This document shows, in pieces, positions 16,454 through 29,209 of a stretch of DNA of 42,026 nucleotides; positions within the stretch are counted from its first letter, which is position 1; every line of letters begins with the position of its first letter. Origin of the DNA: Balneolales bacterium (GTDB taxonomy: Bacteria > Bacteroidota > Rhodothermia > Balneolales > DATFMH01); assembly GCA_035266485.1 (NCBI GenBank), contig DATFNI010000181.1:1-42026 (forward strand), given 5' to 3'. Made by a program: the position numbers and the translations under genes. The notes under the pieces are model-generated. The model was not told where the DNA came from. It did no database searches and saw only the letters and a program-made list of their open reading frames with translations.

Positions 16454-16602
16454 ATGACCTCGTTGGTTGCGGTATACACTTTTCTCGCCAGAGGTCATTC
16501 TTTAAATCGGTAAGTAAGGCTTGGAAATTTTCAGATTACTGTAGAATAACCTCTGGCAATATGTTAACGATTAATTAGTAGTAGAATTAGGCCAGAGATT
16601 AT
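16454..16602 (-). promoter_or_regulatory. Candidate translational attenuator of ilvB (four-segment switch A/B/C/D)
   Basis: On the minus-strand RNA the segments are A AUAAUCUCUGGC (16602-16591), B GCCAGAGGUUAUUCU (16557-16543), C AGAAUGACCUCUGGC (16501-16487) and D GAGGUCAU (16461-16454, the ilvB SD). Pairings are A:B 12 bp, B:C 15 bp and C:D 8 bp, and they are mutually exclusive. Confidence 0.5.
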
Positions 16603-16794
16603 ACCTACATTAATCAATAGGACTAGACTTAGTACGGGTAAAGTAAGCCCTACAGAAGGCAGGTAGAGTACGGTAGCGGAAATCAGAGAGATCACGAACA
16701 AAACAGCTTCAGGATATATGAAACCGGATTGTTGGGTATCGACTGGCATTACTGCCACTGTATGTGAGTTAGTAATAGTCAACTTTTGATCCAT
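16564..16794 (-). CDS. 76-aa ORF upstream of ilvB: either a leader-peptide-like ORF or a small two-TM protein
   Basis: 16 of the last 23 codons are Leu/Ile/Val, ending GLILLLINR*. Seven of the eight Leu codons in this tail are CTA, and none of the seven Leu codons earlier in the ORF is CTA. No SD. Confidence 0.4.
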   Translation of the reverse strand: MDQKLTITNSHTVAVMPVDTQQSGFIYPEAVLFVISLISATVLYLPSVGLTLPVLSLVLLINVGIISGLILLLINR

Positions 16795-17455
16795 AACTGA
16801 TTACAAGCTTCTTGGAATGTATATAACCGAATTTCCTGAGTCAAGTTTATTTTCATCTTTTTTTAAAAAAATTACATCAAATACTATTGGTTTTTAGAAA
16901 TGATTACTTTGTGATCTAATGGTTTTCCTTTTTTATAAGTACTTATAAAAATAATACTTATCTCATTTATTAGGGTCTAAGAGGCTATTCCTGGATTGGT
17001 TTGACCGCCTGGCTGGTGCTATTCCTCTGGTTGCAATTGCTATAAATCGAAAACGAACGCCTTTTCAAATAATTATACGGTTTTGTTCCAATCAGATTGT
17101 TGTTAGTTCATGATGTTTTACAAATGATATCAAATGATGTTCTTTAATGATTTTATATAATATTTCGATGTAAATTAAATATGAAATGGCTTCCAAAATT
17201 TTATGTTTTAGATTATATGGTCGATTAACCTAAAAATATTAATATAAAGACTTGCTGGTTTCTAAAAATAAAAGGATCTGTAGCAAAACGGGATCGATCT
17301 GTGTCCTTTAATATTTTTTGTAATACTTTCCATTAATCGTCTTACACATATATATTGTAAAACTTGTTTTTCCCATATATCGTCCACTAGTTTGGGTGAG
17401 ATGTGATTTTTCCCTTAACAGTTATTAGTAACAAAATTCAGACACAGAGTCGGTT

Positions 17456-26011: not shown

Positions 26012-27205
26012 TTACTGTTTATTGCTCAAAATTGATGCGATGCCGTAAATTTTGCTGAATGCCCTGGCTTCTTCGCCATTCCAGAGCTGGCTGCTCTCGC
26101 CATACTGAGCCTTGCCGTTCATCAGCGAGTTTGGCGACTCTACGCCAAGAGGAAATGCATTGCCTCTGTATAAATACAGATTCGTGGTTCCGTCTACACG
26201 TTCCTGAGTAGCATCCAGGAATGCCTCGATGTTACGCATGACCGGGTCGAAATACTGTGCTTCATGCAATAACATACCGTAATAGTCAGACAGGGTATCT
26301 TTAAGATGACGTTGCCATTTAGTCAGAATTTGTTTTTCAAGTTCGCGGTGTGCCGTATAAACCAGTGTGGCAACAGGGGCCTCAAAACCGATACGGCCTT
26401 TAATGCCGAGGATCGTGTCGCCGGTATGCATGCCGCGGCCAATCCCGTGTTCGACAGCCGCCTTTTTGATAGACTGTAATAAGTTAAGTGGTGTATCCGA
26501 TTCTCCGTTCACTGCAACAGGAAGTCCCTGTTCGAACGTAATGCTGAATTCTTCTGCTTCGTCATTAAAAAGATGGGGAGCCTTCAGTTCAGGAAACGCC
26601 TCGGGTGGCAGTGCCTTGTTTGGAGTCAGTGTTTCATAACCGCCAATCGTGGTGCCCCAGATACCGGCATTGATGGAATAAGGAGCTTTCGAACCGTCCC
26701 GATCCATCGGGACAAAACCCCCCTCTTTAAGAATCTTGATTTGCTGCTCCCGGGTGAACTTCTCCTCGCGGATAGGGGTGATGATCTGCATATCGGGATT
26801 GACCACGCGTAGCGCCACATCAAAACGAACCTGGTCGTTTCCGGCACCCGTAGAACCGTGAGCTACAGCATCAGCCCCGATATTTTTGGCATATTCGGCA
26901 ATGAGCATTGCCTGGATGAAGCGCTCGGCGCCAACGCTAAGAGGGTAGGTTCGGTCTCGTAAGACATTGCCCTTTATCAGATAAGCAATAATTTTAGAAT
27001 AAATCAGATCCGTACCATCGAGGGTGGCATGCGAATCGGCGCCCAGGGCAAGTGACTTTTCTTCGAGCTTGTCCTTTTGTTCGGAAGTCATGCCAAGGCA
27101 ATCCACGGTTACGGTGTGAACCTCGCAATCGTATTTCTTTTTCAGATACGGAACACAAAAACTGGTGTCTAAACCACCGCTAAATGCGAGAACAATCTTA
27201 TTCAT
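26012..27205 (-). CDS. argG: Argininosuccinate synthase
   Basis: 397 aa with AFSGGLDTS and HGSTGAGNDQVRF. Confidence 0.95.
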   Translation of the reverse strand: MNKIVLAFSGGLDTSFCVPYLKKKYDCEVHTVTVDCLGMTSEQKDKLEEKSLALGADSHATLDGTDLIYSKIIAYLIKGNVLRDRTYPLSVGAERFIQAMLIAEYAKNIGADAVAHGSTGAGNDQVRFDVALRVVNPDMQIITPIREEKFTREQQIKILKEGGFVPMDRDGSKAPYSINAGIWGTTIGGYETLTPNKALPPEAFPELKAPHLFNDEAEEFSITFEQGLPVAVNGESDTPLNLLQSIKKAAVEHGIGRGMHTGDTILGIKGRIGFEAPVATLVYTAHRELEKQILTKWQRHLKDTLSDYYGMLLHEAQYFDPVMRNIEAFLDATQERVDGTTNLYLYRGNAFPLGVESPNSLMNGKAQYGESSQLWNGEEARAFSKIYGIASILSNKQ

Positions 27206-27226
27206 AAATCGAAAACACTGGTTATT

Positions 27227-27264
27227 AAAACAAAAAAAGGCAGAACCGGGAAAGTTCTGCCTTT
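27227..27264 (-). terminator. Leader (attenuator) terminator 21 nt upstream of the argG start
   Basis: On the minus strand: AAAGGCAGAAC, loop UUUCCCG, GUUCUGCCUUU, then a U-run continuing as U7-G-U4 to 27227. Confidence 0.75.
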
Positions 27265-27295
27265 ATCTGAAATTCGAAAAATCTTTTACACGAAA

Positions 27296-27385
27296 TCACC
27301 TAATGGCATAGCTTTCCCTTCCGTTTGAAACTAACGGTCGCCGCCGGAGAGCTATGTTAACTGGATATGTAGGTAGTGATTTCAT
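27296..27385 (-). CDS. Candidate arginine leader peptide (29 aa)
   Basis: MKSLPTYPVNIALRRRPLVSNGRESYAIR*. Codons 14-16 are CGG CGG CGA (27346-27338). There are two further AGG codons, one of them the last sense codon. The ORF overlaps the anti-antiterminator and antiterminator segments. Confidence 0.6.
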   Translation of the reverse strand: MKSLPTYPVNIALRRRPLVSNGRESYAIR

Positions 27386-27799
27386 TTGTTTCAAGGTTAA
27401 GAAATTAATCTCTAACAATGCAACTATTATTCAAAAAAAAAGTGAAAAAATGTAAAATGATACTATTCAACGATTTTATTCATGATAACGGCCATAATAA
27501 ACAGAAGAGTATAAGCTGGAAGCGCTTTTCCAAAAAATAAAATTCATCCCCCTGAAATAAAGATGATATACAATGAAGAGTAATAGGTAAAAAATGTACG
27601 ATAGGCAGATGGTTTATTGACAAAAAAATATGATTTCGCTGTTTGAAAGTGTGTGATAAGTTTTATTATTGAATAAAGCGTGAAGATTCCGGGAATCATC
27701 ATTTGAATGATATTGGTTTTATGGCTAACATCCCCGGATATTTTATCCCGAAGGTACCAGGAATCCTTTAGCGGATTCCATAGATATAAATCAAGGTTA

Positions 27800-29209
27800 A
27801 TGCGGATTCTCAAATTTGGCGGTTCTTCAGTCGGAACCCCCGAAGCAATAAAAAAAGTCGTCTCGATTATAGAAGGAAAGCAAAAGCAGGATTCCGTGGC
27901 CGTTGTTGTGTCTGCTTTTCGTGGTGTCACCGATTCGTTGCTGCGCGGTGCGGAACTGGCGGCATCCGGTTCATCTGAATACGATGATCTCATTCATGAA
28001 CTGGAAGAGCGGCATATCGATGTCATCCGTGAATGCATTTCTGTCTACCGGCAGAGCGAAGTGATTGCCCACTTCAAAATGACGCTTAATGAGCTGGAAG
28101 ATATCCTGACCGGCGTCTTCCTGGTCCGGGAGCTGACCCCGCGAACGATGGATTTCATTGTCAGTTTTGGTGAACGGTTCTCCGCATACATCCTTAGCTG
28201 GTGCCTGACAGACAATGGCGTGCCGGCCGGTTTCACCGATGCGCGTGAGTTTATTAAAACCGATATCCGATTCGGTTCTGCCCGCGTTTTGATGGAGCAG
28301 ACATACCGTAACATCCGCGATTATTTCAACACCAGAAAAGAGTTGCAGGTTGTCACCGGTTTCATCGCATCCACTGAGAAAGGGGAGACCTCGACCCTGG
28401 GCCGGGGCGGTTCGGATTATACGGCATCTATATTGGGTGCGGCTCTCGGGGTGGATCTGATCGAAATATGGACAGATGTCAACGGGTTGATGACTGCGGA
28501 TCCGCGGAAGGTCAAGCAGGCATTTACAATACCGGAGCTTTCTTATGAAGAAGCCATGGAGCTCTCTCACTTCGGGGCAAAGGTGATTTATCCGCCTACA
28601 CTACAACCTGCGATGAAGGCGGGCATCCCGATTGTCATCTGCAATACCTTCAATCCCGAATTTCCGGGTACACGAATCGAACAACAGCCCAAAGGGAAAA
28701 ACGGGATCATCAAAGGATTATCATCAATCGAAAATATCGCCCTGGTTACCGTCAGGGGGAGTGGAATGATCGGCGTCAGTGGTATTGCGGCACGTATTTT
28801 CAAGGCTCTGGCTGAGGCGGGTATCAATATTATAATGATTACCCAGGCATCTTCAGAGCATACCATCTGCCTGGCTATCCTCTCAAAATTTGCCAAAGAT
28901 GCACAGAGAGTGATTGAGGATGAGTTTCGAATTGAGATTATGGAAGAGAGTATCGACCGGGTGCTCATTGAAGATGATATGTGTATTATTGCTGTGGTCG
29001 GTGATCATATGCAACGCACGCCGGGTATAGCGGGACTTGTATTCCAGGCGATCGGGAAGAATGAGATTAATATCGTGGCTATCGCACAGGGATCGTCCGA
29101 ACGAAACATTTCTTTCATCGTCAACAAAAATGACGAGGCGGGCGCAATGACGGCACTCCATGACGCTTTTTTCTCTAAAGCGGTAGCTTCAGGCCGTACC
29201 AGTCACTAA
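27800..29209 (+). CDS. lysC: Aspartate kinase, monofunctional, with two C-terminal ACT domains
   Basis: I chose the start at 27800 (MRILKFGGSSVG), giving 469 aa. GRGGSDYTA is present, with ACT-like repeats at the C-terminus. The track start at 27707 is an unsupported extension. Confidence 0.85.
   Translation: MRILKFGGSSVGTPEAIKKVVSIIEGKQKQDSVAVVVSAFRGVTDSLLRGAELAASGSSEYDDLIHELEERHIDVIRECISVYRQSEVIAHFKMTLNELEDILTGVFLVRELTPRTMDFIVSFGERFSAYILSWCLTDNGVPAGFTDAREFIKTDIRFGSARVLMEQTYRNIRDYFNTRKELQVVTGFIASTEKGETSTLGRGGSDYTASILGAALGVDLIEIWTDVNGLMTADPRKVKQAFTIPELSYEEAMELSHFGAKVIYPPTLQPAMKAGIPIVICNTFNPEFPGTRIEQQPKGKNGIIKGLSSIENIALVTVRGSGMIGVSGIAARIFKALAEAGINIIMITQASSEHTICLAILSKFAKDAQRVIEDEFRIEIMEESIDRVLIEDDMCIIAVVGDHMQRTPGIAGLVFQAIGKNEINIVAIAQGSSERNISFIVNKNDEAGAMTALHDAFFSKAVASGRTSH

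Follow-up and report, generated by a model that had tools for sequence, protein, structure and literature searches.

The stretch of DNA analysed here, called the window, is the whole 42,026-nucleotide (nt) contig DATFNI010000181.1, which belongs to a metagenome-assembled genome (MAG) labelled Balneolales. On its minus strand lies an operon of seven tightly packed genes (27205-19604), all but one recognized by NCBIfam and Pfam matches and headed by argG, and upstream of it a thrA-thrB-thrC operon runs in the opposite direction. The subject of this text is the element between the thr operon and argG, namely a short open reading frame (ORF) with a run of arginine codons, an intrinsic terminator behind it, and RNA segments that can pair in alternative ways. 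An initial annotation had proposed that these parts form an arginine-sensing attenuator, and the coordinates that it gave for the leader ORF, the CGG-CGG-CGA run, segments 1-4, the terminator and the U-tract were all right to the base. The features of the element are listed below; "in MFE" marks those that are part of the minimum free energy (MFE) structure.

27423-27394, minus strand: predicted sigma-70-like promoter, with -35 TTGCAT (27423-27418), an 18-nt spacer and -10 TAACCT (27399-27394), from the sequence and its relatives
27385-27296, minus strand: leader ORF of 29 codons plus TGA, MKSLPTYPVNIALRRRPLVSNGRESYAIR, from the sequence
27385-27375, minus strand: 5' strand of helix 0, AUGAAAUCACU, including the start codon; in MFE
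27356-27346, minus strand: segment 1, CAUAGCUCUCC, the 5' arm of the 1:2 anti-antiterminator or pause hairpin; in MFE
27346-27338, minus strand: predicted regulatory Arg codons CGG CGG CGA (codons 14-16), directly 3' of segment 1 with a one-base overlap
27337-27321, minus strand: small inner hairpin, CCGUU (27337-27333) with AACGG (27325-27321), inside the 1:2 loop; in MFE
27318-27305, minus strand: segment 2, GGGAAAGCUAUGCC, alternative partner of segment 1 or segment 3
27300-27290, minus strand: 3' strand of helix 0, GGUGAUUUCGU, across the stop codon; in MFE
27264-27227, minus strand: intrinsic terminator from a consensus scan, 27264-27253 paired with 27247-27236 (12 bp), loop 27252-27248 (5 nt) and U-tract to 27227
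27261-27248, minus strand: segment 3, GGCAGAACUUUCCC, most of the terminator 5' arm plus the loop, antiterminator partner of segment 2

The leader ORF and its RNA segments

The leader is the sole ORF that precedes the terminator in the gap upstream of argG. It starts with the ATG at 27385-27383 and stops with the TGA at 27298-27296, and besides the run of three it has AGG at codon 23 (27319-27317) and at codon 29 (27301-27299), the final sense codon. Because Arg makes up 5.0% of the codons in the genes of the window, three consecutive Arg codons are expected by chance in about 0.3-0.4% of ORFs of 29 codons (our own arithmetic). Short ATG ORFs with at least three Arg in six codons are found 57 times on the two strands of the window, and the leader is the only one followed by a strong terminator. 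That terminator is also the only one in a scan of 26900-27900, where the stem 27264-27236 is followed by a T-run. The initial annotation had drawn the stem with 11 pairs, and 12 can be drawn by adding one G.U pair; the U7-G-U4 tract ends, as it had stated, at 27227, 21 nt upstream of the argG ATG (27205).

The pairings proposed for the segments hold as well. Segment 1 pairs with the core of segment 2, GGGAAAGCUAUG (27318-27307), over 11 positions, 10 of them matched and one a C.A mismatch, and the resulting hairpin is part of the MFE structure; by itself it is worth -15.4 kcal/mol, and the duplex has z = -1.9 against shuffles. In its extended form (27318-27305) segment 2 pairs with segment 3 at 12 of 14 positions. 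This 2:3 antiterminator (-21.8 kcal/mol for the full structure, duplex z = -3.65 against shuffles) and the 3:4 terminator (-16.3 kcal/mol, or -19.3 with its extension) are mutually exclusive. The leader stop codon lies 7 nt past the end of segment 2, as had been claimed. Directly after the Arg codons, the 5-bp CCGUU/AACGG inner hairpin is invariant in the four closest relatives and may be a pause element or merely part of the 1:2 fold.

The MFE structure of 27400-27206 (195 nt) holds both the 1:2 hairpin and the terminator at -47.8 kcal/mol, compared with -37.2 +/- 4.2 kcal/mol for dinucleotide shuffles of the same region (z = -2.5; 2 of 200 shuffles fold equally well). Equilibrium folding of the complete RNA is unable to show a switch, and therefore the nascent transcript was folded, ending at 27248. 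The ribosome was represented by a footprint that begins 15 nt before the first base of the A-site codon and reaches 12 nt beyond it. Under these constraints the probability of the 2:3 antiterminator is 0.79 with the ribosomal A site on the three Arg codons and 0.04 with the A site on the stop codon, so the masking logic of the initial annotation, in which a ribosome on the Arg run permits the antiterminator and one on the stop codon forbids it, holds in silico.

The element in related loci

Related loci were fetched by means of ArgG from species-representative genomes and metagenomes, and from other assemblies via homologous proteins. For a test blind to composition, the non-redundant loci with a strong terminator no more than 200 nt upstream of argG (n = 45) were examined for a positioned ORF, defined as an ATG ORF of 18-60 codons that ends 10-70 nt before the terminator. 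Such an ORF occurs in 43 of the 45, the other two being contigs truncated about 180 nt upstream, and in 41 of the 45 there is exactly one. All 43 positioned ORFs have at least three Arg in six codons. No other residue clusters comparably; the next is Ala, in 7 of 45 loci. Arg accounts for 20% of leader residues in the related loci against 5% in the genes of the window. The short ORF and its Arg run are thus kept, as the initial annotation required of related genomes, in every untruncated terminator-bearing locus of both Balneolales and Rhodothermales. The antisense strand was considered as a control for Arg richness and rejected, since the reverse complement of CGN repeats reads Arg in another frame.

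Representative leader peptides illustrate how little else is held constant.

Window's clade: MKLQGTYQVRIANRRRPLILNGREGYAMK
Other Balneolales: MKIVELHNNRIDVRRRPRRVVNRKAVP
Other Balneolales: MVKLRFTNSIITVRRLRRRRTGKLHICEGQAM
Other Balneolales: MINKTHINRRFSRRSILALGLALS
Rhodothermales: MTITTHITTSLRRRIRQISFGVCGFVAS

Among relatives the Arg codons swap synonymously (CGG, CGA, CGC, CGT and AGG) while the other positions are largely free to vary, which argues for selection on the Arg codons and the RNA and not on the peptide. The two AGG codons of the window are not kept: codon 23 is changed to Trp in L103 and codon 29 to Lys in L001, L059 and L002. The geometry, by comparison, is constant across 33 leaders. 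The Arg cluster falls at nt 22-66 of the ORF, in or adjoining segment 1; towards the 3' end of the ORF comes segment 2, taken as the best partner of the terminator 5' arm and loop, with its own end 1-26 nt short of the stop; and the terminator begins 23-51 nt past the stop codon. In the related loci the U-tract is 21-85 nt from argG, typically 23-55. The element is absent from loci of Flavobacteriales, Cytophagales, Bacteroidales, Ignavibacteria and similar groups, where another gene precedes argG.

Compensatory changes were sought in two alignments, one of 10 distinct Balneolales sequences, anchored and without gaps (A3), and one of 16 Rhodothermales leaders, made with MAFFT and unfitted (A4). 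For the 3:4 terminator in A3, 100% of cells are paired against 25-63% in slid controls, with two compensatory pairs (C-G to U-A and A-U to G-C), and 1 of 500 shuffles matches this. The 2:3 antiterminator is 86% paired in A3 against 28-55% in slid controls, again with two compensatory pairs. One of these goes from A-U to G-C, and its 3' partner is a base of the terminator loop, on which the terminator itself sets no constraint. The C.A mismatch of the window is U-A in L002 and C-G in L003 and L118. Against dinucleotide shuffles the 2:3 duplex has z from -4.4 to -6.8 in the window's clade and a mean z of -2.2 over 33 leaders, 55% of them at p < 0.05. In Rhodothermales, a 7-pair core of 2:3 is 80.8% paired in A4 against 11-54% in slid controls, and only 3 of 500 shuffles attain a covariation score as high.

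The 1:2 pairing behaves differently. In A3 it is 77% paired against 29-36% in slid controls, and 248 of 500 shuffles reach that percentage; in A4 it is weak, at 62% paired. RNAalifold predicts 1:2 on a further unfitted alignment (A2). On the MAFFT alignment of Rhodothermales the same program predicts the terminator alone, and there 1:2 and 2:3 were tested with named structures. By eye, in A4 the Arg codons CGA CGA AUC CGA are themselves segment 1, and the sequence AUCCG is common to segments 1 and 3, a trait of the classical attenuators as well. Of the pairings that had been put forward, 3:4 and 2:3 are therefore backed by compensatory changes, and 1:2 shows pairing potential only.

Upstream of the ORF, the predicted promoter recurs in relatives. 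Of 41 related leaders, 32 have TTGnnn, 17 or 18 nt and TAnnnT ahead of their ATG, compared with 3.6% of random anchors, and in 28 of these 32 the -10 element ends 6-8 nt before the ATG. This conserved spacing marks the ATG independently as the true leader start. In the window the -10 element ends 8 nt upstream of the ATG, which leaves no space for a 5' untranslated region (UTR) or a Shine-Dalgarno sequence. The leader mRNA is probably leaderless or nearly so, with its start site placed by the predicted promoter.

In addition to the four segments, the window has a helix between the two ends of the leader ORF. Helix 0 pairs the region of the start codon with that of the stop codon over 11 bp (-13.5 kcal/mol, z = -2.5). 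Equivalents of differing sequence are present in L001, L059, L002, L003, L104, L106, L109 and L110, with z from -1.5 to -5.5; for instance, in L106 and L109 GAAUUAUUAC pairs with GUAAUAAUUC. No equivalent was found in the Rhodothermales leaders. As proposed here, helix 0 would lock an untranslated leader in the terminating fold and hide the 5' AUG once the polymerase has passed the stop codon, and in this way it would restrict translation to the first, polymerase-coupled ribosome.

A probable arginine attenuator, its rivals and its counterparts

The element is very probably a transcription attenuator of the ribosome-mediated, leader-peptide type, through which the supply of charged tRNA-Arg controls the seven-gene arg operon. 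Because the mini-gene and its terminator are conserved in about 43 related genomes, stalled ribosomes are probably the means by which the bacterial group as a whole gauges its arginine supply, as in the trp attenuator. This interpretation is supported, on the level of sequence comparison, by conservation, geometry, energetics and moderate covariation, and the predicted arrangement displays all the structural hallmarks of a leader-peptide attenuator except covariation of 1:2. From these data we infer that the ORF is translated, that transcription starts where the promoter predicts, that it terminates at the U-tract, that the structures compete kinetically and that the outcome responds to arginine.

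In the proposed mechanism, transcription would begin at or within a few nt of the leader AUG, a 70S ribosome would load on the 5' end of the transcript, and the polymerase would make segments 1 and 2, which are able to form a hairpin. With Arg-tRNA scarce, the ribosome would stall while one of codons 14-16 (CGG, CGG or CGA) occupies its A site, and would thereby cover segment 1; the free segment 2 would pair with segment 3 as it emerges, before segment 4 exists, and with no terminator formed the polymerase would read through into argG. With Arg-tRNA plentiful, the ribosome would reach the UGA, 7 nt past segment 2, and cover the 3' half of that segment, upon which the 3:4 hairpin and the U-tract would end transcription 21 nt before argG. 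If the leader is not translated at all, helix 0, 1:2 and 3:4 would all form with the start codon sequestered, and the default would for that reason be termination.

Several observations weigh against this interpretation. At equilibrium the full-length RNA favours the terminator at every ribosome position (P = 0.92-0.96), so the choice between terminator and antiterminator must be kinetic, as it is in trp. Nascent RNA free of ribosomes already favours 2:3 (P = 0.76), and termination without translation would consequently require that 1:2 and helix 0 have formed beforehand. The modelled switch depends on a presumed kinetic competition, as does that of trp. As for covariation, that of 2:3 in the window's clade is modest and comes from 10 rather similar sequences: its percentage paired in A3 is reached by 22 of 500 shuffles and its covariation score by 73 of 500. 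The 1:2 pairing has no compensatory double changes, its centre is degenerate in several relatives, and over 33 leaders its mean z against shuffles is only -1.0. The Arg run has just three codons, and some relatives (L112-L116, with SRRS) have only two that are adjacent. Four Rhodothermales-labelled loci lack the element. Finally, the window and nearly all of its relatives are MAG or metagenome contigs.

Other explanations have to account for the same facts. Riboswitches and protein-mediated attenuators also combine a terminator with a competing upstream pairing, and the RNA can choose between 2:3 and 3:4 with or without translation of the ORF. It is nevertheless very unlikely that the RNA is a binding attenuator of this kind, either a riboswitch or the target of a TRAP- or PyrR-like RNA-binding regulator, with the ORF incidental. 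What is conserved in 43 of 43 loci is an in-frame Arg cluster in a single ATG ORF with its stop beside segment 2; this one shared feature persists in leaders of highly dissimilar nucleotide sequence, with synonymous changes among its Arg codons, the promoter keeps its distance to the ATG, and the leaders have no conserved unpaired block, no multi-stem aptamer and no Rfam family match even at E < 10. The conserved RRRP of the window's clade would also suit a nascent peptide that senses free arginine and stalls the ribosome at the stop codon, as do the fungal arginine attenuator peptide and TnaC, and the logic would be coherent, as a stall there would mask segment 2 and give the terminator. Such a sensor is scarcely to be expected from a peptide that, outside the Arg run, is unconserved between clades, its C-terminal halves (NGRESYAIR, VVNRKAVP, TGKLHICEGQAM and QISFGVCGFVAS) being unrelated. 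The C-terminal changes instead follow the RNA pairing; a codon change from Ser to Gly, for example, is compensated in the terminator loop.

A third reading takes the ORF as a small basic protein with its own terminator, argG as transcribed from a promoter of its own, and the Arg run as no sensor at all. Small basic peptides do exist, and the ORF does have a promoter and a terminator to itself. But the peptide sequence is unconstrained save for Arg, the bases of the terminator loop are conserved and complementary to the 3' end of the ORF, which a simple terminator would not need, and the element always stands at argG, the first gene of the arg operon. Moreover, the stretch between U-tract and argG is short, 85 nt at most, and no promoter-like site is present in it in the window, all of which makes the reading most improbable. 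That the pairings and the Arg run arose by chance beside an ordinary terminator has next to no probability. One terminator-like site per 1 kb is indeed what shuffles yield (0.9 expected), and Arg-rich short ORFs are common enough in the window, with the 57 counted above. The combination, on the other hand, is unique in the window and recurs in 43 loci of two orders, and the z-scores and the covariation support it, so that the comparative data contradict chance.

Returning to the attenuator, its specificity sets it apart. Control of bacterial arg genes is by textbook account the task of the ArgR/AhrC repressor, and leader-peptide attenuation is classical for trp, his, leu, thr, ilv and phe, a set to which arginine does not belong. 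Leader peptides of other specificities have been reported, such as one for Lys in Thermus, so that there is precedent for extending the mechanism to another amino acid. The initial annotation had called an Arg leader unusual, and this agrees with the searches made. No arginine leader attenuator was found in the literature searched, in which coverage of subscription journals was incomplete and an earlier prediction is possible. Rfam gave no match in the whole window at gathering thresholds; for 27100-27850 at E up to 10, there was no leader family and no T-box, and the best match was to an unrelated small RNA model (17.8 bits, E = 0.21).

The closest counterparts are the enterobacterial attenuators trpL, hisL, leuL, thrL, ilvL/ivbL and pheL. 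As in those leaders, a short ORF separates the promoter from the first gene of the pathway and repeats codons for the amino acid that the pathway makes, the predicted 1:2, 2:3 and 3:4 pairings of segments 1-4 exclude one another, and an intrinsic terminator stands just upstream of the first gene. Also shared are the position of the regulatory codons at segment 1 and of the stop codon beside segment 2, and a terminator that is thermodynamically favoured, which leaves the choice to kinetics. Unlike them, it would sense arginine, its promoter leaves no room for a Shine-Dalgarno sequence, it has a helix predicted to sequester the AUG, it matches no Rfam leader family, and its hosts are Balneolales and Rhodothermales and not Proteobacteria. 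What would be new is the Arg specificity, the probably leaderless start, the added AUG-sequestering helix and the conservation across Balneolales and Rhodothermales; the mechanism itself is known.

Two other types of regulator respond to arginine in bacteria by different means. ArgR/AhrC and the arg leader have the same target, the operon for arginine biosynthesis, and answer to the same signal, arginine sufficiency. ArgR, however, binds DNA and detects free arginine at its operators, whereas the arg leader would sense charged tRNA-Arg via translation. In the four closest promoters no conserved ARG-box-like palindrome was seen by eye, and the TGAATAATAG stretch upstream of the -35 element is not conserved in L001 or L002. 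A search for ArgR homologues gave few close matches, none of them named for Balneolales or Rhodothermales. In three loci that have no leader or terminator, argR immediately precedes argG and has the same orientation:

L024:2418-2864, plus strand: argR, PF01316 and PF02863
L028:2416-2910, plus strand: argR, PF01316 and PF02863
L051:2335-2904, plus strand: argR, PF01316 and PF02863

The idea that argR and the leader alternate within one lineage was rejected, since the submitters labelled these three as proteobacterial MAGs. The second type, the Arg-specific T-boxes of Firmicutes, also reads tRNA-Arg charging and, ahead of Arg-related genes, chooses between terminator and antiterminator. In a T-box, however, the specifier loop and the T-box sequence bind the uncharged tRNA directly and independently of translation, and the RNA is about 200 nt or longer. 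The arg leader differs in being about 160 nt long and dominated by an ORF, with neither specifier loop nor T-box sequence.

Two published systems share individual traits with the arg leader. Mycobacteria have leaderless polycysteine short ORFs, the 'Cys ribulon', in which stalling in the Cys run is reported to raise downstream expression (Canestrari et al., bioRxiv 10.1101/834739). These are leaderless first ORFs on polycistronic mRNAs with a codon run for the product of the downstream genes. They act on translation of those genes, whereas the competing structure of the arg leader is an intrinsic terminator; furthermore, they read Cys and their leaderless status was measured, while the arg leader would read Arg and its leaderless status is deduced from the promoter. 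In the Salmonella speF leader orf34, ribosome pausing at consecutive Arg codons is reported to read arginine availability and to select between alternative mRNA structures (Ben-Zvi et al. 2019, PMC6386406). This leader controls a polyamine gene, for ornithine decarboxylase, and not arginine synthesis, and its ORF, 34 codons long, contains two Arg codons and encodes a conserved peptide domain. Its outputs are described as Rho-dependent termination, unmasking of the ribosome-binding site and RNase G sensitivity, in contrast to the intrinsic terminator of the arg leader.

A wider claim, which we hold to be about evenly balanced, is that this is the first Arg-specific ribosome-mediated attenuator; that a family of leaderless Arg mini-ORFs is the main regulator of the arg operon across Balneolales and most Rhodothermales, in the usual place of ArgR; and that in the window's clade helix 0 sequesters the AUG, so that only a polymerase-coupled pioneer ribosome reads arginine. 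With a conserved Arg leader, an entire lineage of bacteria would gauge arginine by the charging of tRNA at the ribosome, unlike the standard example of ArgR, by a mechanism that extends a known one. The likely leaderless start together with the AUG-sequestering helix would make it a simple natural system for the coupling of the first ribosome to RNA polymerase without a Shine-Dalgarno sequence. Such mini-ORFs are missed by genome pipelines, and the family of about 43 loci could yield a covariance model or a short-ORF rule for Balneolota and Rhodothermota.

The operon and its neighbourhood

The genes of the regulated operon were assigned as follows.

27205-26012, minus strand: argG, the first gene of the operon
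25995-24916, minus strand: unassigned gene for a protein of 359 amino acids (aa), between argG and argC
24912-23890, minus strand: argC (NCBIfam/Pfam)
23860-22793, minus strand: N-acylornithine carbamoyltransferase (NCBIfam/Pfam)
about 22800-22029, minus strand: argB (NCBIfam/Pfam)
22014-20962, minus strand: ArgE/DapE-family deacylase (NCBIfam/Pfam)
20959-19604, minus strand: lyase-family gene, probably argH (NCBIfam/Pfam)

The 359-aa gene directly follows argG in Balneolales and Rhodothermales loci. Its product has no Pfam, NCBIfam or PDB sequence match, and nearly all of the 331 homologues found are called 'hypothetical'; one UniRef name reads 'DUF1611 domain-containing'. On the strength of that name, a DUF1611/DgcN-like acetyltransferase was considered, which neither Pfam nor a fold search confirmed. 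The AlphaFold model (predicted local distance difference test, pLDDT, of 91) has an all-beta N-terminal domain and a C-terminal P-loop NTPase domain (GTCMNVGKT), the latter with a generic likeness to FtsY, dethiobiotin synthetase and ParA (Foldseek E = 7e-6, template-modelling score about 0.35). Because the seven-gene operon shows no argA/argJ and no argD, it may be speculated that this gene encodes a missing enzyme of the arginine pathway.

The initial annotation had also stated that the window has no argR gene. This stands for the arg, thr and ilv genes and for six further ORFs, those of ArgR size included, none of which is ArgR. No leader-peptide attenuator was found at ilvB, ilvD, thrA or 12 more gene starts of the window, and among the gene starts examined such an attenuator occurs only at the arg operon. 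A motif shared by the regions upstream of ilvD and thrA (TTCAACGATTTTAT) was dismissed as not significant, as 15 of 100 shuffles equal it. The gap of about 1 kb at 16480-17455 between the divergent ilvB (minus strand) and ilvD (plus strand) shows no leader-peptide and terminator arrangement on either strand, and a very hydrophobic 76-aa ORF lies at 16564-16794 (minus strand), just upstream of ilvB.

On the other side of the arg leader promoter, some 380 nt (27424-27800, plus strand) lead to the likely thrA start, the ATG at 27801; the start listed for the thrA ORF, 27707, is 31 codons too early. This interval gave no match in Rfam, and neither a short ORF rich in Thr or Ile nor a terminator was found there. 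It holds a 7-bp hairpin, GGAATCC(TTTAGC)GGATTCC, at 27760-27779, 21 nt upstream of the likely thrA start codon.

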